A DNA stretch of 54,981 nt, from the IMG/VR virus record IMGVR_UViG_2875697941_000003, one strand, 5' to 3'. Position numbers and translations under genes: made by a program. The notes under the pieces are model-generated. The model searched no databases. It was not told where the DNA came from and worked only from the letters and a program-made list of their open reading frames with translations. Of the stretch, positions 1 through 33,521 are shown piece after piece (positions within the stretch are counted from its first letter, which is position 1; each line of letters begins with the position of its first letter). This stretch comes from a virus. Taxonomy: Duplodnaviria > Heunggongvirae > Uroviricota > Caudoviricetes.

Positions 1-316
1 TATAATAAACTTACTTTTTTATCATTTTTCCACTTTAACAACATTTTGCTCCACTTTTCCACGANCAAACAACTTGAAATCTGGTTAAAATAACACGCAA
101 CACTATTCTTCTTCCTTGAGTCCGCCCGGAACTCGAAAAACAAACCGAGTTAAAGCCATTTTTCACAAAATCGATTTTGGGTCTCACCAAAATTACGGGG
201 TTGCATACGCATTCGTTTATTTTCGAACGTGTACATACAAATATGCACAAAAATAATCANAATTATTTTCTGAGATGCATTATGATATGAACACCAATTT
301 CGTATAGAGTCTCACT

Positions 317-907
317 ATGTCTCGAATTTTTGCTTACTGTCGGATATCAACGCTGGATCAGACCANCGAAAATCAACGCCGGGAAATCGAAAGTGCAGGT
401 TTTAAAATCAAACCTCAGCAAATAATCGAAGAACACATTAGCGGCTCAGCAGCAACCAGTGAGCGTCCTGGTTTTAACCGGTTGCTTGCTCGCCTGAAAT
501 GTGGTGATCAATTGATTGTGACAAAACTGGATCGCCTTGGTTGTAATGCAATGGATATCAGGAAAACAGTGGAACAACTGACCGAAACAGGTATCAGAGT
601 GCATTGCTTAGCATTGGNNGGCATTGACCTGACCAGTCCAACAGGAAAAATGATGATGCANGTAATTTCAGCAGTCGCTGAATTTGAACGAGACCTTTTA
701 CTTGAACGCACTCATTCCGGGATAGTAAGAGCCCGCGGCGCAGGGAAACGTTTTGGTCGACCACCTGTGTTAAATGAAGAACAGAAACAGGTGGTATTCG
801 AACGAATTAAGTCAGGTGTAAGTATAAGTGCCATTGCCCGGGAATTCAAAACCTCGCGGCAAACCATTTTAAGAGCCAAAGCAAAACTTCAGACACCTGA
901 CATATAA
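317..907 (+). CDS. pinR: Serine recombinase / DNA invertase (Pin/Gin/Hin family, PinR-like), 196 aa
   Basis: N-terminal catalytic motif YCRISTLDQ with the nucleophilic Ser, C-terminal HTH; sits next to tail-fibre genes as in Rac/e14; four N bases lie inside the ORF. Confidence 0.85.
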
Positions 908-925
908 AAAATAATCTCGGTGTGA

Positions 926-1204
926 GATGCTTTACGTCTTCCAAGCCCCCTTCCTTGCCGTAAATGGAAAGATACATCTAATTATAGAATTTATATGTTT
1001 TACCCTACGGCAGTGCTGGCCATTCAATATCCTGTGCAGTTGACGTATCAACACNNNNNNNNNNNNNNNNNNNNNGATGCTTTACGTCTTCCAAGCCCCC
1101 TTCCTTGCCGTAAATGGAAAGATACATCTAATTATAGAATTTATATGTTTTACCCTACGGCAGTGCTGGCCATTCAATATCCTGTGCAGTTGACGTATCA
1201 ACAC
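926..1204. repeat. Exact 129-bp tandem duplication (926-1054 and 1076-1204) split by a 21-N gap; probable assembly artifact
   Basis: Identical flanks on both sides of N run 1055-1075. Confidence 0.7.
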
Positions 1205-1880
1205 GGTTCAGCAATACCCGATACTTTTTCCATGCTTCCAGCAACGAGATTTCTTCCTCCGTTGCAATTTCCAGATCTGCAGCATCCTGAAGCGGCGCAA
1301 TATGCTCACTGGCTACCTGCATCAGGTTGTTTTTTGTTTCTTCCGCCTCCCGGATCCGGAACAGTTTTTCTGCTTCCGTATCCTTCACCCAGGCTGTGCC
1401 GTTCCACTTCTGATATTCCCCTCCCGGCGATAACCAGGTAACATTTTCCGGTAACGGACCGAGTTCAGAAATAAATAACGCGTCGCCGGAAGCCACGTCA
1501 TAGACGGTTTTTCCCCGATGATCTTCAACGAGATGCCACGATGCCTCATCACTGTTGAAAACAGCCACGAAGCCTGCCGGAATATCTGGCGGTGCAATAT
1601 CGGTACTGTTTGCTGGCAGACCTGTATGAGGCGGAATATATGCGTCACCTTCACCAATAAATTCATTAGTTCCGGCCAGCAGATTATAAATTTTTATGGT
1701 CCGTGGTTGTTCACTCATTCTGAATGCCANNNNNNNNNNNNNNNNNNNNNCGGTACTGTTTGCTGGCAGACCTGTATGAGGCGGAATATATGCGTCACCT
1801 TCACCAATAAATTCATTAGTTCCGGCCAGCAGATTATAAATTTTTATGGTCCGTGGTTGTTCACTCATTCTGAATGCCAT
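1155..1880 (-). CDS. tfaR: Tail fibre assembly protein (Tfa family); ORF inflated by an N-gap duplication
   Basis: Lambda Tfa-like N-terminus [24 protein letters not shown]... appears twice in the ORF because of the 1601-1879 duplication; lies directly downstream of the side tail fibre gene. Confidence 0.75.
1601..1879. repeat. Exact 129-bp tandem duplication (1601-1729 and 1751-1879) split by a 21-N gap; probable assembly artifact
   Basis: Identical flanks around N run 1730-1750. Confidence 0.7.
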
Positions 1881-4800
1881 TATGCAAGCCTCACAATATA
1901 GTTAAATGCGATGTTTTTGACGGTGTTTTCCGCNTTACCAGCAGCGTTAACGGTGATGGTGTGTCCATGTGAACCAATCGCAACGGAGTGCGTATGAGCA
2001 CCAATACCGACAGTATGCGCGTGTGCACCTGCAGATGCTGCTGTGCCGGACAGTGANTGGCTATGATTACCATCTGTACTGGTATTNGCTAACCACCCCG
2101 TAGACATACCTACTGAGCCTTGTACACCCCAGGTATTTTGACCTGAGCTTGTATAACCATATTGATAAGTATCTTTAAAAACACTGGGGTTAAATCGACG
2201 GCCATCTCTATGGCTGTGATTACCAGCTGCATTCGTGCTGCCACNNNNNNNNNNNNNNNNNNNNNAGCCTTGTACACCCCAGGTATTTTGACCTGAGCTT
2301 GTATAACCATATTGATAAGTATCTTTAAAAACACTGGGGTTAAATCGACGGCCATCTCTATGGCTGTGATTACCAGCTGCATTCGTGCTGCCACTTAAAC
2401 TATGAGTATGCGCACCAGTGTTATTCGTGGATTTAGTGCCGTAATCAAACGATGATGTGGTTTTCGTACCCAAATCCGTACTGGATACGCTGGCGCTGTG
2501 GGTGTGCGATTTAATGCCGTCCTGTTCCTGAGACAATACGGCACGACCACTGGCGGGCTTGCCCTTAATCGTCCAGCCACGCATATCAGGGATCACGCCT
2601 GACGGATAAGCGGCTGCAAGTTTCGGGTAAGCAGATTTGTCAAAAGTCTGCCCCTGCATCAGGGCATAACCAGACGGAACGGTATCTGATGGCCACGGGA
2701 TTGGTGCGCCGACTGGGTAGCTTTCTGGTGGAAGATTTTTCGAGGTATAAACTTCTGCCCAGTCTTCCTCAAAACCATAACCGTCTCTTGAAGAACGGTA
2801 GAACAGACCACCATTTCTGTAATGCGCCTTCATCTGCAGGGTCCGGCAACTTCCGACTCCGGTATAGAAGTTAACCAGAATATAGCTGTCGCCAGAGCGG
2901 GTGACATTGTAAGCGCCTGATTCGGCATTCCAGGGAACGCCACCATCCGCATCGGCATATGTATCCGTTGCCCTTCTGGCAAAAGCAGCCACATGCGCGG
3001 CGGTTAAAGTAATATCTTTTGAACCATCAAACTCAACCCCAGAAACCAGTCTTGGCGTTTGCAGCTTTGTTGCTGTCAATGCGTTACCGTTCAGACTTGC
3101 AGACAGCTTGGTTCCAATAACCAGTTCGCCGGTTGCGTTATCAATAGCAAACGGTCTTAATGTATTCCATCCACCATAAACATCACCTTGATTGGTAAGC
3201 AGCAGGTAAGTTTTAGCGCCATCATTACGCCATAATGCCCCATACTCCCCACCTATCATTCGAATCTGATTACCACCACGCGCTACAATTTCGTCTGTGG
3301 CAAAAAGTTTTTTGCACGACAAGTTATCGTTAACGATTAACGAATGAGACTCATAAAAACCACGCCCACTCTTAAAATCAAGGATAACGTCCGCCGCGAT
3401 ACATTCAGTCGCTGGATTTGTTGCCCCAAACTTATAGGTCGTATCATTAACAACGAGATCAGCACCAGGTGCGGATATTGACAGGCCATCTTCGATAAAC
3501 GCAAAAACAGGGAAAGCAGCGCCATCAACATAGAACACAGAGCGCAAATCATCGCCCTTATTACTCATCATTATTGAGTGGATGGCTCGTTCATTGTTTT
3601 GATATTGCCAGAACATTCCATAAGCATAACGCCCCCTGTCAGTCCAGCCACCAGGCATAACAAATCCGTTAAACTCGCAGTTATTCATCGGATCGCCTGC
3701 GGTTCGCGTTGCCGTGGTGATAATGACCCTTGATGCCAGTTCGCTTACTGAGCCAGCAGAACGCATAACAACAACAGGGTAATATTTTCCAGATGTTGCA
3801 CCTGCAGGAGCGTTAACCCGCACATAACGCATACCACGCTTATCAGCAAAGTCTGTTTTACTGACCGCGTTAATGTTGTTCAGGAAGCGTCCCTTATCGG
3901 GTATATCAGCGCCGTTCTGGTCTTTCTGCAGACGTTTCTCTGCATTGTCATAGGCTGATTTTACTGCCTTTGGCGTTGCCGCCAGCGTTTCAGACGTGCT
4001 GTTGGTCGCGCTGCTTAGCTGGATTATCCCTTTCTGTGCTGTCGTTGCATCCTGTGCGGTGTATTTCCCGTTAGCCAGGTCATACGCGGCCTTAACGGCT
4101 TTTGGCGTTGCCGCCAGTGACTCGGAAGTGCTATTGGTCGCACTGCTGAGCTGTACTATCCCCTTTTTCGTCGTGCTCGCATCCTCAAGCGCCACGGCGG
4201 ATGCAATATCCTCTGCCCGTTTTGCCGCTGTCTCAGCGCGCGTTGCCGCGGATTCCGCCGTACTTTTGCTCTGAGCTGCCGCCGTCGCACTGCCAGCTGC
4301 CTCTGTCGCCTTCGTGGATGCCGTCGTGGCGCTGCCCTTCGCTGCGGACGCTTGTCTGGTCGCCTCATCTTTTGAAGCAGACGCAGATGATGCCGATGAC
4401 GCCGCCGAACTGGCGGACGATGCGGCAGCCGTTTTTGAGGATTCTGCGCTGGTTTCCGACGCTTTCGCGTTCGTCTCGGATGTCTTCGCTGCGGAAGCAG
4501 ACCTCGCTGCTGCGCTGGCCTGTACAGCGGCTTCGCCAGCCTTCGTTGTGGCTGTTGAAGCGGACGATGCAGCACTTTCTGCCGATTTTCCGGCGGCGGT
4601 GGCACTGGCTGAGGCCTGCCCGGCACTTGTTGACGCGGCACTGGCAGACGACGCAGCCGCTGTTTTTGAGCCTGCCGCAGCTGAGGCACTCTGTCCCGCT
4701 GCCGTTTCAGAAGACCTGGCGTTTGTCTCAGACGTCTTTGCCGCCTTCGCGGAATTGCCTGCCGCCGTTGCCGAGGAAGCGGCACTACTGGCGCTTGATG

Positions 4801-5560
4801 ATGCGTTCGTTTCTGATGATTTCGCTGCCTCTTTTGAGGCCGCCGCATCCCGGGCTGAGGTGGCAGCTTCTGACGCTTTCGTGGTCGCGGTGGATGCTGA
4901 AGTGGCTGCTGATTGTTGTGACGCTGCCGCATTCGTTTCTGACGTTTTTGCCGCAGCGGCACTGGTGGCCGCCGCGCTTTTTGAGGACTCTGCAGCGGCA
5001 GCACTTTTTGATGCTTCAGTGGCCTTTGCTGATGCCGTTCCTGCGCTGGAAGACGCTGACTGAGCCGACGAAGCGGCCTGTCCGGCTGACGTGCTGGCTG
5101 CGCGTGCTGAGCCTGCAGCATCAGTCGCATGGGTTGCCGCCTCACGGGCAGATGTGCCGGCATCGCCGGCTGACTTCTTCGCGGCTGCCGTGTTCTGTGC
5201 CACTGCGGACGCGTTACGCGCCACCTCTTCCACCATCAGTTCAAAACGGCGCAGTGCCTCTGGCCGGACATCATCCTCCGTCATTGCACCGAGGAAATCA
5301 TTCAGTGTGCCCGGCTTTGAGTCCTCATATACGGTGATAATCCCGGCGTGTGACGGCGGGAATCCCTCCACCAACAGACTGACGCTGTACTGACCATACT
5401 CGACGTCCATTGTGTAACGCCCGGCTTCATCCGGGTTTTCTGAGGCCACTGTGTTCACCACCACCGTGGTGCTGTTGCGCCTGGCCTTTAGCTGAATGGT
5501 GCAGTTTTGTATCGGCTTACCTGCGCCATCTTTCAGTACACCTGAAATCCGTACTGCCAT
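1880..5560 (-). CDS. stfR: Side tail fibre protein (Stf-like): lambda-Stf-like N-terminus, Ala/Ser-rich repeat shaft, His-rich distal repeats
   Basis: N-terminus [38 protein letters not shown] matches lambda Stf; C-terminal [15 protein letters not shown]...[11 protein letters not shown]; contains N-gap duplication 2116-2394 and single Ns. Confidence 0.85.
2116..2394. repeat. Exact 129-bp tandem duplication (2116-2244 and 2266-2394) split by a 21-N gap; probable assembly artifact
   Basis: Identical flanks around N run 2245-2265. Confidence 0.7.
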
Positions 5561-5571
5561 ATTCCCCCCAC

Positions 5572-5598
5572 AAAAAAGCCCGCCTGAACCGGCGGGCT
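5572..5598 (-). terminator. Rho-independent terminator downstream of lom
   Basis: Minus-strand hairpin AGCCCGCC-GGTTCA-GGCGGGCT followed by TTTTTTGTGG. Confidence 0.75.
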
Positions 5599-5624
5599 GT
5601 CATAACACTGTGTTACCTGGCTAA

Positions 5625-6224
5625 TCAGAATTTATAACCGACACCAACGATGAAACTGTTGGTACGCCAGTCACCGCTGCCGGAGCCTTCATAAGCGACG
5701 TCAACGGCCACGGATTCGGTCGGGTTAAACTGCACGCCAGCTCCCCACGCCAGAGAGGTGTTACTGTGGCGAGCGTCATCACTTCCGGTCAGCACGTCGT
5801 GCGTTTTTCCCTTGTTGTCAGTTACGCGGAGATAATCCCCGGAAAAAGTCGACACACGGCTGTAAGCCACGCCTGCCATCGCATACGCGCTGAACCATTC
5901 ATTCACGCGTACAGACGGCCCCGCCATCACGCTGAACCAGCGGTTACGCACGGAATCTTCATGCCAGCGGGTATCGCTGTAACGGGTAAGCTGGCGATTC
6001 TTGTCTCCTGCATAGCTGAACGACGTCACCATCCCCAGTGTGTCCGTAAACTCATAACGGTATTTCACGTTAATCCCGTTCAGATCATCACTGCCGGGAA
6101 CGTTCGTCCGGGCATGAAGATACCCCGCGCTCAGCGTGGACTGATGTTCAGACGCCCATACAGGCGCACCGGATACGGCCAGACAAATGGCTGCGGACAA
6201 AATGGCTGCACAAACTTTACGCAT
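5625..6224 (-). CDS. lomR: Outer membrane beta-barrel protein Lom (Ail/Lom family), 199 aa
   Basis: Signal peptide, aromatic C-terminal residue (GYKF), lambda-Lom-like sequence and position between J and stf. Confidence 0.85.
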
Positions 6225-6248
6225 AATTACCTCTCGCTTTTCTGCAAT

Positions 6249-6273
6249 AAAAAAGGCGCCATTTCTGGCGCCC
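6249..6273 (-). terminator. Rho-independent terminator between J and lom
   Basis: Minus-strand hairpin GGGCGCC-AGAAAT-GGCGCC followed by TTTTTTATTG. Confidence 0.7.
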
Positions 6274-6291
6274 GTATATGGGTTATAAAAT

Positions 6292-9200
6292 TCAGCTGAT
6301 ACTGATGCCTGCGGTGGCTTTCTTCATCACCACAACCAGCAAATCGCTGATACTTGCTGTGGGATACCAGTCATTTACCAGCCATGCTGACACCGAAAAC
6401 TCCAGCGTCATGTGGCCGTGACCAGCTGGCATATCAATAACACCACTGTAAATCAGCGTATTATCCAGCGCGGTACGGTTATAAATTTCAGCACCATTTT
6501 TCTTCACTATCAGGCGGCATGAGGAGTAAATATCAGTATGCTCTCTCTCATGTTTAGCACCGCTGAATGCCACCGCCGGAATAACAATCTGCCGGTCAAA
6601 CGGCTGATCGTCATAAATCCTGACGGTAATGGTCCCTGATGGCCACCGCTCCGGTGCCCGGGAGTCCCGCGGGAAAGCCTTACCCACTGTTTTGACAATA
6701 TCGCCTTCAATCTGGTTGGCTGACAGTTTCCCTTTAATCTGACAGTTCTCATTTATCGTAACGTTGTTGAGCGTCCCGGCGTTCGCATTCACACTGCCAC
6801 TGATATCTGCATTTTTAGCGGTCAGCTTTCCGTCCGGTGTCATGGAAAATGCAGGAGGATTACCGCCGCTGGTAATGGTGGGAGCCGTCAGATATTTCAG
6901 GAACACTTCATTCATGAATATCTGATCACCCTGACCAACAAACATCGGTTTTGTGTTGCCATTTGCAGGATTAATCATCGCAATCCTGTCTGCCGCCAGC
7001 AGCACCTGACTCTGCATGCCGTCGGGGGTGTTCTCAATACCGGCACCGATACCCGCAATATAAAGGCGTCCGTCCTGCATCTGCTGCAGCTTCACAGCCC
7101 ACATGCTGTTCAGATTATTATTTGTATCAACCTGAACCTTCTGTATCTGCTGGATCGCTGCACTCTGGTCTTCCAGTTTCTTATTGACGGTCTGTGTGAT
7201 TTCATTGCTGACATCCGTAATGGACGTCCTGATTTCAGCCAGGTCAGGCGCAAGCTGACCGTTATCAATCTGCGTCCACAGCTCCTGAGCCAGATGGGTT
7301 TTCCCTATCTCGCCTTTGAAAAAATCCAGATAGCCGGATGCGTCATCACTCGGCTGACCAACAGCCTCCACGAATGCCGATTTGCCAACGGTGTTCACAC
7401 TGCGAACGTAAAAATAATAATTATGGCCCGGCCTGATATTGATACTGGCGGCTATCCAGTACAGCGCCGTACCAAGATAGCGGGCTGTGGTTTCAACCTG
7501 CCTGATATCCGCAATCCGCTTTTCCGAGAACCAGAACTCAAACTGTACCGTCGGGTCATAAACGGCAAGATGCGGCGTGGCGGTTATCTGAAAATAGCCC
7601 GGCGTCAGCTCAAGCCGCGACGGCACTGCAGGTGCGGCAATCCGGAACGATACCGATGCCGGATCGCCCTGCTGCCCCCACGCATTTACCGCCCGGACTG
7701 TCAGCCTGTAGTTCCCTGGCGCCAGCTGCGTGAAGCGGTATGTGGTTTCCGTCGTCCGGGCCGTGCTGACCAGCCGCTCACTGCCGTCATCCGCTGCCAC
7801 GGTCAGGCGAAGCAGGAAGCTCACGCCCTTCACCACCTTCGGCGTGTCCCAGCGCGCCAGCACCTGATATTCCCCGCTGTCTGCGGTGACTTCGGCGGTC
7901 AGGTGCTGCACCGCTGGCGGCGTGACACCATTCACCGTGCCGCTCTGGTCGCCGTCAAAGTGCGCCCCGTTATCCACGATGGCTTCTTTTTCCGGTACAT
8001 GCTGCACGGCAGTGATGGCATACGTGCCGTCATCGTTCTCACGGATACTCACACAGCGGAACAGGCGCTGGCGCAGCGTCGGCAGCTTCAGCCCCCACAC
8101 ACTGTATTCTGCAACGCCGTCAGGAACCCGGTTCACTTTCACCTTAAGTCCGTCGGTGACGGACTGAACCTCCACGCTGACCGGATTACCACTTCCGTCA
8201 ACCAGGCTTATCAGCGTGGTACCGGAGGATGGCAGCGTGATTTCACGGTCGAGCGTCAGCGTCCGGGTCTGGCTGTTCACCGCCAGCACGCGACCACCGG
8301 TGCTGATACCGGCATAGTCATCATCGCAGATTTCAATGACATCCCCCGGTACATGGCGAAGCCCTTCCGCACCCACGCTGAAGTCCACGGTCTGCGTCTC
8401 CAGCAGTTCCGTTTTAATCAGCCACAGCCCGGCGCGGTGTGCCTGCCCCCGGCTGGTACAGCCAAAGGCATCCATCTTCGTGACATTACGACCGTAACGG
8501 GCAATGGCCTGCGTATCTTCAACAAGCTCTGTCGCCGTCTCCCAGCCGTTGTCCGGGTCAATCCAGTTCACCTCAACGGCATTATGGCGGTCCTTCAGGG
8601 CGCTGAAGCTGTAGCGGAACGGCGCGCCATCATCCGGCATCACCACATTACTGCGGTTATAGGTCCACACCTTATCCGACGGTCGGTCCTGCNNNNNNNN
8701 NNNNNNNNNNNNNCAGTTCACCTCAACGGCATTATGGCGGTCCTTCAGGGCGCTGAAGCTGTAGCGGAACGGCGCGCCATCATCCGGCATCACCACATTA
8801 CTGCGGTTATAGGTCCACACCTTATCCGACGGTCGGTCCTGCACGAACGTCAGCGTCTGCCCGTTCCATACCGGCATACAGCGCATCGCCGAGCAGAAAT
8901 CACTGAGCACATCCCACGCCTTGCGCTGTGTGGTCAGGTACGCATTACAGGTGATGCGCGGCTCCGTGCCGCCAAAGCCGTCCGGCACTGACTGGTCGCA
9001 GTACTGGCCGATGACATACAGCGCCCATTTGTCCACATCCGCCGCACCAAGACGTTTCCCCANNNNNNNNNNNNNNNNNNNNNTCAGGTACGCATTACAG
9101 GTGATGCGCGGCTCCGTGCCGCCAAAGCCGTCCGGCACTGACTGGTCGCAGTACTGGCCGATGACATACAGCGCCCATTTGTCCACATCCGCCGCACCAA

Positions 9201-10207
9201 GACGTTTCCCCATGCCGTAGCGTGGATGGGTCAGCATATCCCACAGACACCAGGCCATGTTATTGCTGTATGCTGGCTTAAACGTTCCGTCCCAGATACC
9301 GCTGTATTGCCGAGTCTGCGGGTTATAGTTCGACGGCACCTGCAGAATACGCCCGCGCAGATGATAATTACGGCTCACCTGCTGGCTGCCGAACTGCTCC
9401 GAATCCACCTGTACGCCGACCAGTGCCGTGTTCGGGTAGCACTGTTTCACATCGATGATTTCGGTGTATGACGACCAGAGCGTTTTGTTCTGCAGCTGGT
9501 CTGTGGTGCTGTCCGGCGTCATCCTGCGCATCCGGATATTGAACGGGCGCGGCGGCAGGTTACCCACCACCACCGATGCCAGATACTGCGAGGTGGTTTT
9601 GCCTTTAATGGTGATGTCTTTTTCCGTCACCCAGCCACCATTACGCTGTATCTGAACCAGCAGGCGGACTTCCGACGGATTCCGGTCCCCCTTTGAGGTG
9701 GTTTCCACCAGTGCCTGCACACCGAAGGTAAAGCGCAGACGGTCGATGTTTGCCTTTTTCCGTCACCCAGCCACCATTACGCTGTATCTGAACCAGCAGG
9801 CGGACTTCCGACGGATTCCGGTCCCCCTTTGAGGTGGTTTCCACCAGTGCCTGCACACCGAAGGTAAAGCGCAGACGGTCGATGTTTGCCGACGTGATGG
9901 TCCTGGTAATCGGCGTGTCGTACTTCACTTCCGTACCCAGCACCGTCTCGGAGCCGGAGGATTCAAATCCCTCCGGCGGTGTCTGCTCCTGCTCACCGGC
10001 CCGGAACACCACCGTGACGCCGGATATATTGGTATTCCCCTCACTGTCCAGCACCGGCGTACTGTTCAGCAGCACGCTTTTTAATCCGTCCACCGGACCT
10101 TCAACCGGCCCTTCGCTGATGGCATCGATCACACTCAGCAGCTGCGTGGACTTCAGGTTGTCCTTCGCTTCGCGCGGGGTATGCCCCTTACTGCTGCCTT
10201 TACCCAT
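6292..10207 (-). CDS. Tail tip / host-specificity protein J (central tail fibre); frame broken in this sequence by duplications
   Basis: Lambda-J-like sequence throughout; ORFs 6292-9720 and 9641-10207 are two pieces of one gene split by the 136-bp tandem duplication at 9619-9890; two N-gap duplications also lie inside. Confidence 0.85.
8564..8842. repeat. Exact 129-bp tandem duplication split by a 21-N gap (Ns 8693-8713); probable assembly artifact
   Basis: Identical flanks on both sides of the N run. Confidence 0.7.
8934..9212. repeat. Exact 129-bp tandem duplication split by a 21-N gap (Ns 9063-9083); probable assembly artifact
   Basis: Identical flanks on both sides of the N run. Confidence 0.7.
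9619..9890. repeat. 136-bp perfect tandem duplication without Ns (9619-9754 and 9755-9890) inside J; shifts the frame
   Basis: Direct comparison of the two copies; 136 is not a multiple of 3. Confidence 0.7.
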
Positions 10208-10267
10208 TCGTCATGCTCCATAAACGATAAAACCGCCCGGAGGCGGTTTCACATAAAACATTTTGCA

Positions 10268-10909
10268 TCAGCGACCAATCACCACAACCTGACCACCATC
10301 CCCTTCGTCTGCCGTGCTGATCTCCTGAGAAACCACGCGTGACCCCACGCGCATTTCACCGTACAGAACCGGCAGAACATTGCCCTGGGCAACCATGTTA
10401 TCCAGTGAAGAAAAATAGGTATTCTGTTTGCCGTTATCCGTTGTCTGTGTGCGGGGGGTTTTGGGTTTAGGGGCCAGCATCTGTGCAACACCGCCAAGCG
10501 TCATACTGGCACCGAGAGAAAACAGCAGATTACTCGCCATAATTCCTACCCCCGGCATCCATATAGCAACCGCCATAACAGCCGCCCCCAGCACAGCCTG
10601 AAACACACCGCCACTTTTGGCTCCTGCCAGACGCGGCACGATATGGATCACGGCACCATTTTCCAGCGGCTCATTAAGACGGGCAGACAATTCGGTTTCA
10701 CCTGCATCACGCCCGGCAATCCGTACCTGATACCAGCCGTCGCTCAGTTTCTGACGAAATGCCGGGATCTGCATGGCCAGCGCCCGGATGGCTTCGGACC
10801 CCGTTTTCACTCGAAGGTCGATGCGGCGGCCAAATCGTTGTAAATCCCCGTAAAGGCAGATGCGTGCCATGCCCGGTGACGCCAGAGGGAGTGTGTGCGT
10901 CGCTGCCAT
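10268..10909 (-). CDS. Tail assembly protein I
   Basis: Lambda-I-like sequence with C-terminal hydrophobic segment; position between K and J. Confidence 0.8.
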   Translation of the reverse strand: MAATHTLPLASPGMARICLYGDLQRFGRRIDLRVKTGSEAIRALAMQIPAFRQKLSDGWYQVRIAGRDAGETELSARLNEPLENGAVIHIVPRLAGAKSGGVFQAVLGAAVMAVAIWMPGVGIMASNLLFSLGASMTLGGVAQMLAPKPKTPRTQTTDNGKQNTYFSSLDNMVAQGNVLPVLYGEMRVGSRVVSQEISTADEGDGGQVVVIGR

Positions 10910-11153
10910 TTGTCGGTGTACCTCTCTCGTTTGCTCAGTTGTTCAGGAATATGGTGCAGCAGCTCGCTGTCACCACAGTAAATGGCGGCATGATTCGGCA
11001 CCGATGAACCAAAACAGCACGGAGTGTGTGCGTCGCTGCCATTTGTCGGTGTACCTCTCTCGTTTGCTCAGTTGTTCAGGAATATGGTGCAGCAGCTCGC
11101 TGTCACCACAGTAAATGGCGGCATGATTCGGCACCGATGAACCAAAACAGCAC
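10888..11153. repeat. 133-bp perfect tandem duplication without Ns (10888-11020 and 11021-11153) at the K/I junction; shifts the frame
   Basis: Direct comparison of the two copies. Confidence 0.7.
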
Positions 11154-11683
11154 AGCAGCACATCGCCCGGCTGCGCCGCTGACAACGGCACCTGATACAG
11201 CCCTGTGGCCTCCAGATTATCCAGATAGAGATTCTGACCGTTACGCCACCAGTCATCCCCGCGATGAAAATCCGGCATCTCAATTCCCGCCAGATGGTAA
11301 GCGTCCCGGAACAGCGTGTAACAGTCCGTTACCCCGTGCTCAAAGCGCCGCCCGGTGAGATGCGGCACACAGCGGAATTTATGAATCGCCCCCCGGCAGA
11401 CCAGCCACCACGGCAAATCACTCTGTACCTGCAGCCGCCGGTCGGCCTCACTCAGCCAGGGCAGACCACCGGGGTGGCTGTGGACCAGCGCCACAATCTC
11501 TCTCTGCATTTCTGCACTCAGCCAGTCCTCCGGCGACATCCGGAAATACTCCTCCGGCTCACCGGAGATATTCACGCAGGGAAAATATCTTTCCTCCTCC
11601 GGCGTTCTCACCACGAAGCCGCACGACTCCGCTGGCGCACATCGCCGGGCGTGCGCCAGAATCGCTGATTCTGTCTCTGTCAT
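10970..11683 (-). CDS. Tail assembly protein K (MPN/JAB plus NlpC/P60-like); C-terminus displaced by the 133-bp duplication
   Basis: Lambda-K-like sequence including HSHPGG motif; the authentic C-terminus continues in ORF 10807-11001. Confidence 0.8.
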   Translation of the reverse strand: MTETESAILAHARRCAPAESCGFVVRTPEEERYFPCVNISGEPEEYFRMSPEDWLSAEMQREIVALVHSHPGGLPWLSEADRRLQVQSDLPWWLVCRGAIHKFRCVPHLTGRRFEHGVTDCYTLFRDAYHLAGIEMPDFHRGDDWWRNGQNLYLDNLEATGLYQVPLSAAQPGDVLLCCFGSSVPNHAAIYCGDSELLHHIPEQLSKRERYTDKWQRRTHSVLFWFIGAESCRHLLW

Positions 11684-11688
11684 GGGAT

Positions 11689-12387
11689 TTACTGCGAAAG
11701 TTTGTTAATGGAAAGGAAGCTGCCAAAGTTGCCGACATTATTGCGAAACTTACAGCCACTCAGGCATTTGCTGCATTTATCCTTCGTGATATCGGACGTC
11801 GGCTGGTCATATTCATCCGCGACCGCCGGACCGCTATAACCGCACTCATCGCCGCGATAGGTCCAGGTGCAGGTGTTGGCCAGCATGATACGTCCCGGAA
11901 AAACAGCGCCATCCGTTTCAGTCGGCGTGGACAGTACAAAAGAGGCACTGACCGCGCTCAGTTCGCTGCACTGCTCGATGCGCCAGCGGCTGATCACCTC
12001 CTGCTCCGGATCGGCTTCGCTGTTTCCGTTGACGAAGTTCACCGCATCCAGAAAGCGGGCGTAAACCTTACGCCGGACCACCGTTCCGCCGACCAGACTC
12101 TGCAGATCTTCCGCCATCCCGGTGATCATGCCGTGCAGGTTAGAGACCGTCAGTGTCGGACGGGCAGCACTGCCCTTGCCGTTCATCTCAAATCCACTCC
12201 CCTGAATGGGATAGGCCTGATACTGCCGACTCTGCCAGGTGACAGACTCACCTTTTTCGTTCTGCTCATTACAGAAAAAGTAGCGATCCCCGCCTACCTC
12301 GGTCAGGTCGATTTCCCAGAGCACCACGCTGGCCGACTGCTCCGCACGAATGCATTCATTCAGCGTTTCCTGTTGTATGTCCTGCAT
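11689..12387 (-). CDS. Tail tip protein L
   Basis: Lambda-L-like sequence, C-terminal Cys cluster, gene order. Confidence 0.8.
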   Translation of the reverse strand: MQDIQQETLNECIRAEQSASVVLWEIDLTEVGGDRYFFCNEQNEKGESVTWQSRQYQAYPIQGSGFEMNGKGSAARPTLTVSNLHGMITGMAEDLQSLVGGTVVRRKVYARFLDAVNFVNGNSEADPEQEVISRWRIEQCSELSAVSASFVLSTPTETDGAVFPGRIMLANTCTWTYRGDECGYSGPAVADEYDQPTSDITKDKCSKCLSGCKFRNNVGNFGSFLSINKLSQ

Positions 12388-30325: not shown

Positions 30326-30802
30326 TTACTTTAAACACTGCTCGGTTATGTATTGCTGAGCACCTTCAAGTTGGGCCTGCATCATTACCAGTCGTTCCCG
30401 GAGGGTGAAATAATCCCGTTCAGCGGTGTCTGCCAGTCGGGGGGAGGCTGCATTATCCACGCCGGAGGCGGTGGTGGCTTCACGCACTGACTGACAGACT
30501 GCTTTGATGTGCAACCGACGACGACCAGCGGCAACATCATCACGCAGAACATCATTTTCAGCTTTCGCATCAGCTAACTCCTTCGTGTATTTTGCATCGA
30601 GCGCAGCAACATCACGCTGACGCATCTGCATGTCAGTAATTGCCGCGTTCGCCAGCTTCAGTTCTCTGGCATTTTTGTCGCGCTGTTCTTTGTAGGCGAT
30701 GGCGTTATCACGGTAATGATTAACACCCCATGACAGGCAGACGACGATGCAGATAACCAGAGCGGAGATAATCGCGGTTACTCTGTTCATTGCTGACCCC
30801 AC
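30326..30802 (-). CDS. Spanin inner-membrane subunit Rz (i-spanin)
   Basis: Near-identical to lambda Rz (N-terminal TM, coiled coil). Confidence 0.9.
30385..30570 (-). CDS. rzoR: Spanin outer-membrane lipoprotein Rz1 (o-spanin), nested in +1 frame inside Rz
   Basis: [23 protein letters not shown]... lipobox plus PPPPP stretch, lambda Rz1-like. Confidence 0.85.
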
Positions 30803-31200
30803 AAACAGATTTCACGCTCAATCTCACGACGAGTCATGAGACCTTTCCATTGCTTACCGCCAGCATATGTCCAGCGACGTAGCTGATCACATGCGCCTTT
30901 GATATCGCCCTGGTTTATTTTGCGAAGAAGCGTCGATGTTCTGAAATTGCCAGCACCCACGTTGTAAACGAATGAGTANTTCGTGTATTTTGCATCGAGC
31001 GCAGCAACATCACGCTGACGCATCTGCATGTCAGTAATTGCCGCGTTCGCCAGCTTCAGTTCTCTGGCATTTTTGTCGCGCTGGGCTTTGTAGGTAATGG
31101 CGTTATCACGGTAATGATTAACAGCCCATGACAGGCAGACGATGATGCAGATAACCAGAGCGGAGATAATCGCGGTTACTCTGTTCATTGCTGACCCCAC
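30787..31200 (-). other. Chimeric duplicate segment: Rz N-terminus (73 codons), single N at 30979, then endolysin C-terminus; probable misassembly
   Basis: ORF translation switches from Rz sequence to R sequence at the N; the copy differs from the full Rz by a few substitutions. Confidence 0.6.
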
Positions 31201-31679
31201 AAACAGATTTCACGCTCAATCTCACGACGAGTCATGAGACCTTTCCATTGCTTACCGCCAGCATATGTCCAGCGACGTAGCTGATCACATGCGCCTTTGA
31301 TATCGCCCTGGTTTATTTTGCGAAGAAGCGTCGATGTTCTGAAATTGCCAGCACCCACGTTGTAAACGAATGAGTAAAGAGCGCCGCGCGTTGTTTCCGG
31401 TATATCGACTTNGATGTACGGGTTAATTTGTCTGGCGACNGTGGCAAGGTCTTTATTCAAGAGTGNTTTGCATTCTGCTTTGGTATACGTTTTACCGAGC
31501 ATGATGTCTTTTCCTGTATGCCCGTGACATACAGTCCATACACCAACAATATCTTTGTATGGTATGTAGCTGACACCTTCCAGACCATCGTTACCACTTG
31601 GGCCAGTGATTAACACTGATGCTATAGCAATTGCTCCGCCACCAATAGCAGCAACGGCTTTTCGTAATGATGGAGGCAT
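31185..31679 (-). CDS. SAR endolysin (phage 21 R21-type, T4-lysozyme-like muramidase with N-terminal signal-anchor-release domain)
   Basis: N-terminus [26 protein letters not shown] (Gly/Ala-rich SAR TM) and C-terminal lysozyme sequence match R21; three internal Ns. Confidence 0.85.
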
Positions 31680-32080
31680 TATTCACCTCTCGCAGCCTTG
31701 CGCTTATCTTCTTTAATCTTGAAATAAAGGTTTGTCAGGTACGTCAGCAGGCCAAATACCAGGCTACCCAGCACACCTATTGCTGCCCACTGTGAGGGCG
31801 TGACTTTATCGAGCAGCTGTAAAAACCAGTAACCGGCACTACCTGCTGANTTATTCAAGAGTGTTTTGCATTCTGCTTTGGTATACGTTTTACCGAGCAT
31901 GATGTCTTTTCCTGTATGCCCGTGACATACAGTCCATACACCAACAATATCTTTGTATGGTATGTAGCTGACACCTTCCAGACCATCGTTACCACTTGGG
32001 CCAGTGATTAACACTGATGCTATAGCAATTGCTCCGCCACCAATAGCAGCAGCAACGACTTTTCGTAATGATGGAGGCAT
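31679..32080 (-). other. Chimeric duplicate segment: endolysin N-terminus (76 codons), single N at 31850, then pinholin C-terminus; probable misassembly
   Basis: ORF translation switches from R to S sequence at the N; copies differ by substitutions (VVAAA vs AVAA; LLDKV vs LLDRV). Confidence 0.6.
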
Positions 32081-32295
32081 TATTCACCTCTCGCAGCCTT
32101 GCGCTTATCTTCTTTAATCTTGAAATAAAGGTTTGTCAGGTACGTCAGCAGGCCAAATACCAGACTACCCAGCACACCGATTGCAGCCCACTGTGACGGA
32201 GTTACTCTATCGAGCAACTGTAAAAACCAGTAGCCAGCACTGCCTGCGGAGGTGCCGTAGGCAATGCCTGTTGAAATTTTGTCCATGGATTTCAT
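32080..32295 (-). CDS. Pinholin S21-type (class II holin) with dual-start motif
   Basis: [26 protein letters not shown]... matches phage 21 S21; two Met codons (32295 and 32286) behind a strong SD GGAGGTGA. Confidence 0.85.
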
Positions 32296-32396
32296 AGCCT
32301 CACCTCCGCACGGAACGGATGGCATAGTTATTATGTGTAGGCTTTCAGACACATCAATCAGAGCCTTAATTGATATATATGCTGGAGACGATGCAA

Positions 32397-32546: not shown

Positions 32547-32942
32547 CTAACCTCGCATGTCAAAGCCAGATTTCTGAAAATCTCTGTAGACTTCCGGATT
32601 GTTGAAGGCCGGAAATTTGGCTTTATGAGCTGCGGACTTTATCGCTTCGCAATAGGCTTTATCACCGTTACTGGTAGATATTTTTAACGCCGTGCCATCC
32701 TGAGAGAATTCCATATGCAACCTGCATTTTTTCCCTTTCCAGTTATGCGGCTCATCAAGTTTGGCATTAATTGCAGCTCTGATTCCCCGCGCTTGCGCCC
32801 CCCATTCATCCTGATCATCCCAGCGTCCTGAACTGCAACTACCTGTAGCAGTAGTTTTGTGGCAATCTGAAGGGTGTAAAGGTGTGCATCCCGCAACAAA
32901 ACCGACCCAAAAAGTCAACATAACGATTTTCTTTAATCCCAC
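32547..32942 (-). CDS. Lipoprotein with TolA C-terminal domain (TolA-III)-like region, paralog 1
   Basis: Signal peptide plus lipobox VAGC; C-terminal region aligns with TolA domain III and with paralog 2 (conserved Cys pair, DG, F..D motif). Confidence 0.65.
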   Translation of the reverse strand: MGLKKIVMLTFWVGFVAGCTPLHPSDCHKTTATGSCSSGRWDDQDEWGAQARGIRAAINAKLDEPHNWKGKKCRLHMEFSQDGTALKISTSNGDKAYCEAIKSAAHKAKFPAFNNPEVYRDFQKSGFDMRG

Positions 32943-33092: not shown

Positions 33093-33521
33093 TCAGGGTT
33101 TAAAATCCAGCACCCCATTTTGAAATACTTTATATACTTCCGGCGAAGGGGGGGCAGGTATATCAGCATTCTTTATCGCATTCATCGCTTCACGACATAA
33201 ATCGAGGTCTCCACTTTCTCTTTTAACCTCCAGTAGAAGGCCATTCGGGGCCATATGCATTCTCAGTGTACACTCTTTTCCTGAATACTTACTCGCATCC
33301 CCGAACTGTTTTTCGATGGCGCTCTTGATTTGATGGGCATACAGACGGATATCCTCACTAACATCAGAAGTACGTTCAGATGAACTCACATACTGTGTCT
33401 CTATTGCTTTATCGGAGTAATATGATGTACGGTCATGATAATTTGTCGATACAGCATCAGTGCACCCGATAATAATCCCACTAATAATCAACGTAAGAAT
33501 TGATGCGCTACGAAAACCCAT
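33093..33521 (-). CDS. Lipoprotein with TolA C-terminal domain (TolA-III)-like region, paralog 2
   Basis: Signal peptide plus lipobox IIGC; C-terminus QIKSAIEKQFGDASKYSGKECTLRMHMAPNGLLLEVK...PEVYKVFQNGVLDFKP closely resembles E. coli TolA C-terminus; own SD GAGGAA and TATATATAAT -10-like box upstream. Confidence 0.7.
   Translation of the reverse strand: MGFRSASILTLIISGIIIGCTDAVSTNYHDRTSYYSDKAIETQYVSSSERTSDVSEDIRLYAHQIKSAIEKQFGDASKYSGKECTLRMHMAPNGLLLEVKRESGDLDLCREAMNAIKNADIPAPPSPEVYKVFQNGVLDFKP

Follow-up and report, generated by a model that had tools for sequence, protein, structure and literature searches.

Staggered duplications in the lysis cassette of a Rac-type prophage very probably arise from unmerged contig overlaps at scaffold joins

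Introduction

The lysis cassette considered here raises a simple question: was part of it duplicated in the phage genome, or was it duplicated during assembly? The window, i.e. the whole stretch of DNA that was analysed, comprises 54,981 nucleotides of a caudoviricete record (IMG/VR IMGVR_UViG_2875697941_000003), and the cassette lies on its minus strand, within 30.3–32.4 kb. A first-pass annotation, made from the letters of the window, had read the coding strand in the order S, R N-terminus, N, S C-terminus, full R, Rz N-terminus, N, R C-terminus and full Rz. It proposed that two near-identical lambdoid lysis cassettes had been collapsed into one path. Comparison of the locus with complete E. 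coli genomes, together with searches for the junctions in wider collections, indicates that the staggered duplications are very probably a scaffold-level misassembly, caused by the unmerged overlaps of a contig from a paralogous cassette, and not biology.

Two staggered repeats adjoin at single ambiguous bases

The first repeat covers 397 nt, with positions 30582–30978 recurring at 30980–31376 (an offset of 398 nt) with 6 substitutions. The second repeat extends over 31453–31849 and recurs at 31851–32250, the copies measuring 397 and 400 nt, respectively, and differing by 13 substitutions and a 3-nt indel. These differences are unevenly distributed: the initial 201 nt of the second repeat are the same save for an N at 31466, followed by the 3-nt indel and then by the 13 substitutions. 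In both cases the duplicated copies adjoin directly, with one N exactly between them (at 30979 and at 31850). Repeats of ~400 nt at 96–98% identity are far above chance expectation. The two backward jumps of ~400 bp, each marked by an N, and the several substitutions between copies had thus been described correctly. The extent of 30787–32080 given for them was rightly located, while the full structure is slightly wider, spanning 30582–32250 (Table 1).

Three more Ns, unmentioned in the first-pass annotation, are found in the inner block between the two joins, at 31412, 31440 and 31466. The window as a whole contains 119 Ns, made up of five runs of 21 N and 14 Ns at 13 isolated sites.

Table 1 Features of the lysis cassette and of other joins in the window.
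Feature	Position	Strand	Remarks
Rz (i-spanin), resident Rac-type allele, intact	30326..30790 (Pfam listing 30329-30790)	-	Pfam PF03245, 3.7e-53; protein identical to MB49 WP_001082755.1 'lysis protein'
Putative Rz1-like o-spanin lipoprotein ORF, nested in Rz	30385..30570	-	61 aa, lipobox-like VVGC, proline-rich tail
Repeat copy A	30582..30978		Final 397 nt of left contig; resident allele; 0 mismatches vs SE11 and MB49; contiguous with trkG side
Artefactual fused ORF: DLP12-type Rz N-terminus, X, resident R C-terminus	30787..31188	-	Pfam Rz positions 1-41, then lysozyme positions 53-125
Join 1, single N (left contig/inner block)	30979		Reference position goes back 397 nt
Inner block, 870-nt contig, allele of the second, DLP12-type cassette	30980..31849		867/867 defined bases match essD-rrrD-rzpD of CP55_Sichuan and MB49
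Inner block, copy B	30980..31376		
Inner block, gap stretch	31377..31452		76 nt, sole copy
Inner block, copy C	31453..31849		
'Full R' ORF, DLP12-type SAR-endolysin allele	31185..31679 (Pfam listing 31188-31679)	-	164 aa, ambiguous residues; Pfam PF00959, 1.4e-44; translation compared with MB49 WP_001362419.1 and WP_001135310.1
Three single Ns at sites variable between alleles	31412, 31440, 31466		Resident allele T, C, T; DLP12-type allele C, A, C
Artefactual fused ORF: resident R N-terminus, X, DLP12-type S C-terminus	31679..32080	-	Pfam lysozyme positions 3-57, then holin positions 11-63
Join 2, single N (inner block/right contig)	31850		Reference position goes back 400 nt
Repeat copy D	31851..32250		Opening 400 nt of right contig; resident allele; 0 mismatches vs SE11 and MB49
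S holin (phage-21 type, essD-like), resident allele, intact	32080..32295 (Pfam listing 32083-32298)	-	PF04971, 2.2e-35; identical to MB49 WP_000839565.1
129-nt repeat pairs around 21-N runs	926-1204, 1601-1879, 2116-2394, 8564-8842, 8934-9212		
N-less tandem repeat, period 136 nt	9615-9890		In gpJ
N-less tandem repeat, period 133 nt	10888-11153		In tail assembly/C40 peptidase genes

Gene content of the cassette

Pfam searches of the intact and fused ORFs agree with the gene order that had been read on the coding strand. The families PF04971, PF00959 and PF03245 each score above the cut-off, in the order holin, lysozyme and Rz, with the Rz1-like ORF embedded in Rz. The R translation displays an N-terminal hydrophobic, SAR-like segment. 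On the basis of these sequence features, the cassette is predicted to be of the phage 21/DLP12 holin-endolysin-spanin type. The known cassettes of this type (essD/S21 holin, rrrD/R21 SAR endolysin and rzpD-rzoD/Rz-Rz1 spanins) share with it the gene order, the embedded Rz1, the overlapping start and stop codons and the Pfam families, and RefSeq labels the matching genes essD, rrrD and rzpD. Once the artefact is removed, no difference from them is left in the cassette itself; its setting does differ, as the resident cassette sits in a Rac-type prophage beside trkG rather than in DLP12, and its DNA is 94.8% identical to the DLP12-type copy. Biologically, what remains is an unremarkable set of holin, SAR-endolysin and spanin genes of the phage-21/DLP12 type, carried by an intact Rac-type prophage.

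The 5' part of Rz falls inside the first repeat copy, and the Rz1-like ORF is located outside the duplicated part. An annotation of 'rzoD: prophage lysis lipoprotein RzoD' is present at the matching cassette in several complete genomes. The ORF that had been called the full R is not the resident R allele, which encodes 165 aa.

Both joins stay in frame, and two fused ORFs of 133 aa result. Taken at face value, these would be R'-'S and Rz'-'R fusion genes, created by genuine staggered tandem duplication in two illegitimate recombination events of ~398 nt each. Tandem duplications do occur in prophages, and the open frame kept at both joins would agree with such an origin. Both joins would, however, be in frame by chance in ~1 of 9 cases, the two independent events would need the same 398-nt period, and an ambiguous base sits exactly at each junction.

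The outer copies and the inner block are alleles of different cassettes

When compared to the listed complete E. coli genomes, a 2,251-nt region around the cassette maps in full, in three pieces, onto only 1,455 nt. The difference of 796 nt equals 2 x 398 nt. A base-by-base comparison reveals that the sequence up to 30978 and the sequence from 31851 have 0 mismatches to the single-copy Rz-R-S cassette of SE11 and MB49, two complete E. coli genomes in which it is the resident cassette of a Rac-type prophage linked to trkG. MB49 is the closest complete relative, with 100% identity to the window over ~50 kb outside the joins. Excision of 30979–31376 and 31453–31850 (796 nt) yields a 1,174-nt Rz-R-S cassette that is the same as that of MB49 save for two Ns.

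The inner block differs from the resident allele by 19 substitutions, a 3-nt deletion and the three Ns. When queried alone, it matches five complete genomes in a single piece at 99.7%, with the three Ns as the sole differences. What is matched in those five genomes is essD-rrrD-rzpD, the lysis cassette of another lambdoid prophage. The two cassettes are 94.8% identical overall and 97% identical across the 870-nt block. MB49 carries both of them, the resident one at 2.52 Mb and the DLP12-type one at 3.38 Mb, i.e. ~0.86 Mb apart. The source genome almost certainly also holds a second lambdoid prophage with a DLP12-type cassette; that prophage lies outside the window, and we infer its presence from MB49, the nearest relative with a complete genome.

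The identity of the inner copies bears directly on the possibility of tandem duplication: they match the other known allele at all 867 defined bases, and are not diverged versions of the outer copies. Hence, the locus offers neither a defined junction nor copies derived from one another. The proposal of two near-identical lambdoid cassettes in one path holds in that the outer sequence is the Rac-type and the inner the DLP12-type allele; the event was an unmerged scaffold join, not a collapse. The sole signal of collapse is provided by the three internal Ns. These coincide with sites that vary between the two alleles (T/C, C/A and T/C), and thus mark consensus columns where the cassettes differ.

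Lambdoid lysis cassettes are mosaic and recombine, and it could be argued that the resident cassette is a true mosaic with a gene-converted DLP12-type tract, represented by the inner block, the overlapping ends of the long contigs being erroneous. The 76-nt gap is covered by the inner block alone, in keeping with this idea. Against it, the resident alleles in the two outer copies lie ~140 nt and ~10 nt, respectively, from dense resident-specific flanking sites on the same contigs. At such short distances, the resident alleles are in physical linkage with the trkG and tolA-like flanks. As both long contigs are furthermore identical to two independent finished genomes, gene conversion appears exceedingly unlikely.

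A mixed sample might also be considered, in which two strains or sub-populations had different alleles at the Rac locus and the alternative allele was scaffolded as the 870-nt contig. Such a mixture would likewise account for a divergent contig that overlaps its neighbours and for Ns where the alleles vary. In complete genomes, however, the block-type cassette is flanked by iss, nohD, quuD and a porin gene and not by trkG. MB49 has both cassettes in one chromosome, and several cassettes per genome are the norm. A mixture should also produce Ns or alternative contigs throughout the prophage, whereas the flanking 19,958 nt and 19,012 nt match MB49 almost perfectly and contain no N. Given that the block allele has its own prophage context and that the flanking 19–20 kb are clean, we regard a mixed sample as very unlikely.

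The junctions are absent from other assemblies

We searched 5,426 complete E. coli genomes with 60-mers centred on either junction and found no match. The E-value limit was strict, such that a 30-nt half-match could not pass and only a true junction would be reported. The 60-mers replaced a 201-nt junction query, for which two-piece matches at 100% outrank a possible one-piece match. Junction patterns allowing any base at the N gave 0 matches in species-representative genomes, metagenome contigs and viral contigs. As a positive control, the normal single-copy sequence of this position was recovered from >120 viral contigs.

Two complete genomes, CH4804 (locus L002) and LR-25 (locus H2), display longer spans at the cassette and were examined as candidates for a duplication, which was rejected: the additional length stems from IS3 insertions in rrrD. 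Similar to the window, each has two annotated rrrD fragments in one cassette. Unlike the window, this is due to a real IS3-family insertion of defined sequence, without duplication of any part of the cassette.

The junctions are therefore missing from all collections searched, which argues further against genuine tandem duplication. The first-pass annotation had held this to be the less likely alternative, and we concur on the grounds that the inner copies are the other allele and that the junctions occur in no other assembly; such an origin is extremely improbable. We attach equally little credence to a real structure formed by recombination between a Rac-type and a DLP12-type prophage, with a staggered DLP12-type insertion, in-frame fusions beside an intact gene set, and Ns that are low-quality calls.

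Similar joins occur elsewhere in the window

Alignment of the whole window to MB49 identifies nine backward jumps. Each of the five 21-N runs (at 1055, 1730, 2245, 8693 and 9063) has an exact 129-nt direct repeat on either side, with a period of 150 nt. These repeats are unmerged contig overlaps. Two additional tandem repeats, with periods of 136 and 133 nt, carry no N as a flag; since these periods are not multiples of 3, false frameshifts would arise in the tail genes affected. None of these seven extra joins (five with 21 N, two N-less) is present in MB49 or the other best complete genomes (best 12). The 12 best complete genomes have 10,981 nt to match positions 1–12000 of the window, and the excess of 1,019 nt corresponds to 5 x 150 + 136 + 133 nt. 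That seven other joins bear the same signature as those of the lysis cassette speaks against tandem duplication as the origin of the latter.

The genes in which the joins fall all recur across lambdoid prophages: those of the pinR/tfaR/tail-fibre region, J, and the tail assembly and lysis genes. Spurious sequence amounts to ~1.8 kb over the nine joins. The overlaps are of equal size within a class (397 nt on both sides of the inner block, 129 nt at the five N runs), and the joins fall into classes with 21 N, 1 N or 0 N. Together these point to rule-based software behaviour.

The remaining isolated Ns (65, 260, 366, 618–619, 661, 1934, 2057 and 2087) are limited to the blocks 1–1054 and 1751–2244, which cover pinR, tfaR and tail-fibre genes. 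By analogy with the lysis block, these Ns probably mark sites that vary between paralogous prophages.

A proposed assembly path

A misassembly of this kind can be outlined as follows. The source E. coli contains an intact Rac-type prophage, whose single S-R-Rz/Rz1 cassette adjoins trkG. With a median of 2 copies per E. coli genome and a maximum of 13, the cassette is a typical assembly-breaking repeat. The resident cassette is split into two contigs, one ending at 30978 and the other starting at 31851; the 76 nt missing between them (30913–30988 in the MB49 locus, L004) belong to the most conserved part of R. The gap was filled with a contig of 870 nt that stems mainly from reads of the second cassette and overlaps each neighbour by 397 nt. 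As the overlaps differ (by 6 substitutions at one end, by 13 and an indel at the other), they were presumably left unmerged. Concatenation of the pieces with one N per join generates the two apparent staggered 398-nt tandem duplications and the two fused ORFs. The internal Ns may be explained by resident reads that, having no allele-specific anchor, were pooled with those of the second cassette.

Two candidate causes of a more specific nature were considered and rejected. De Bruijn k-mer geometry (k ~130) predicts, around the sites variable between the two alleles, unitig ends that are off those observed (L004 30912, 30989, 30516 and 31388). Divergence boundaries do not account for the ends of the inner block either, the nearest variable sites lying 33 nt and 7 nt outside them, with nothing distinctive about the positions.

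A gap separating the copies of a duplicated pair within one scaffold is an established hallmark of false duplication (Ko et al. 2022, PMC9516828), and features become fragmented or duplicated when a scaffolder joins contigs by a gap whether or not they overlap (ARBitR preprint, bioRxiv 10.1101/2020.04.29.065847). The lysis locus shares with known false duplications at scaffold joins the adjacent pair on one scaffold, the gap character between the copies, the two different source sequences and the false gene fragments or fusions; in addition, removal of one copy gives the sequence of better assemblies. The Ns at the junctions, the restored reference, the recurrence at other joins and the absence of the junctions elsewhere are all features by which a false duplication is recognised. 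The locus is distinct in that its two sources are not the haplotypes of a diploid but paralogous cassettes from prophages of a haploid bacterium. It is also distinct in that the 'gap' is one N and the insert overlaps both neighbours, leading to a staggered double duplication. The true local sequence is that of the window minus 2 x 398 nt, and the duplicated structure is neither a real feature nor a biological novelty.

Annotation of the record and prophage context

The value of these observations is one of quality control only. If the record were annotated automatically, two false fusion proteins and a surplus lysozyme gene would be called, and a DLP12-type endolysin allele would be placed in a Rac-type prophage. 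Counts of gene copies, pseudogenes or prophage mosaicism should be taken from this assembly only after overlap merging.

According to the MB49 annotation (locus L004), the window represents an apparently intact Rac-type prophage with recE, racC, kilR, sieB, ydaT, trkG, pinR and a full set of head and tail genes. The defective Rac of K-12 is much smaller. The late and early regions are separated by a block of non-phage cargo, which encodes an MFS transporter, a BCCT transporter, a LysR regulator and a gamma-glutamylcyclotransferase. Immediately upstream of the holin, the SE11 and MB49 annotations place two small genes for lipoprotein-like products with a TolA C-terminal domain (32547–32942 and 33093–33521, minus strand), which are unusual neighbours for a lysis cassette.
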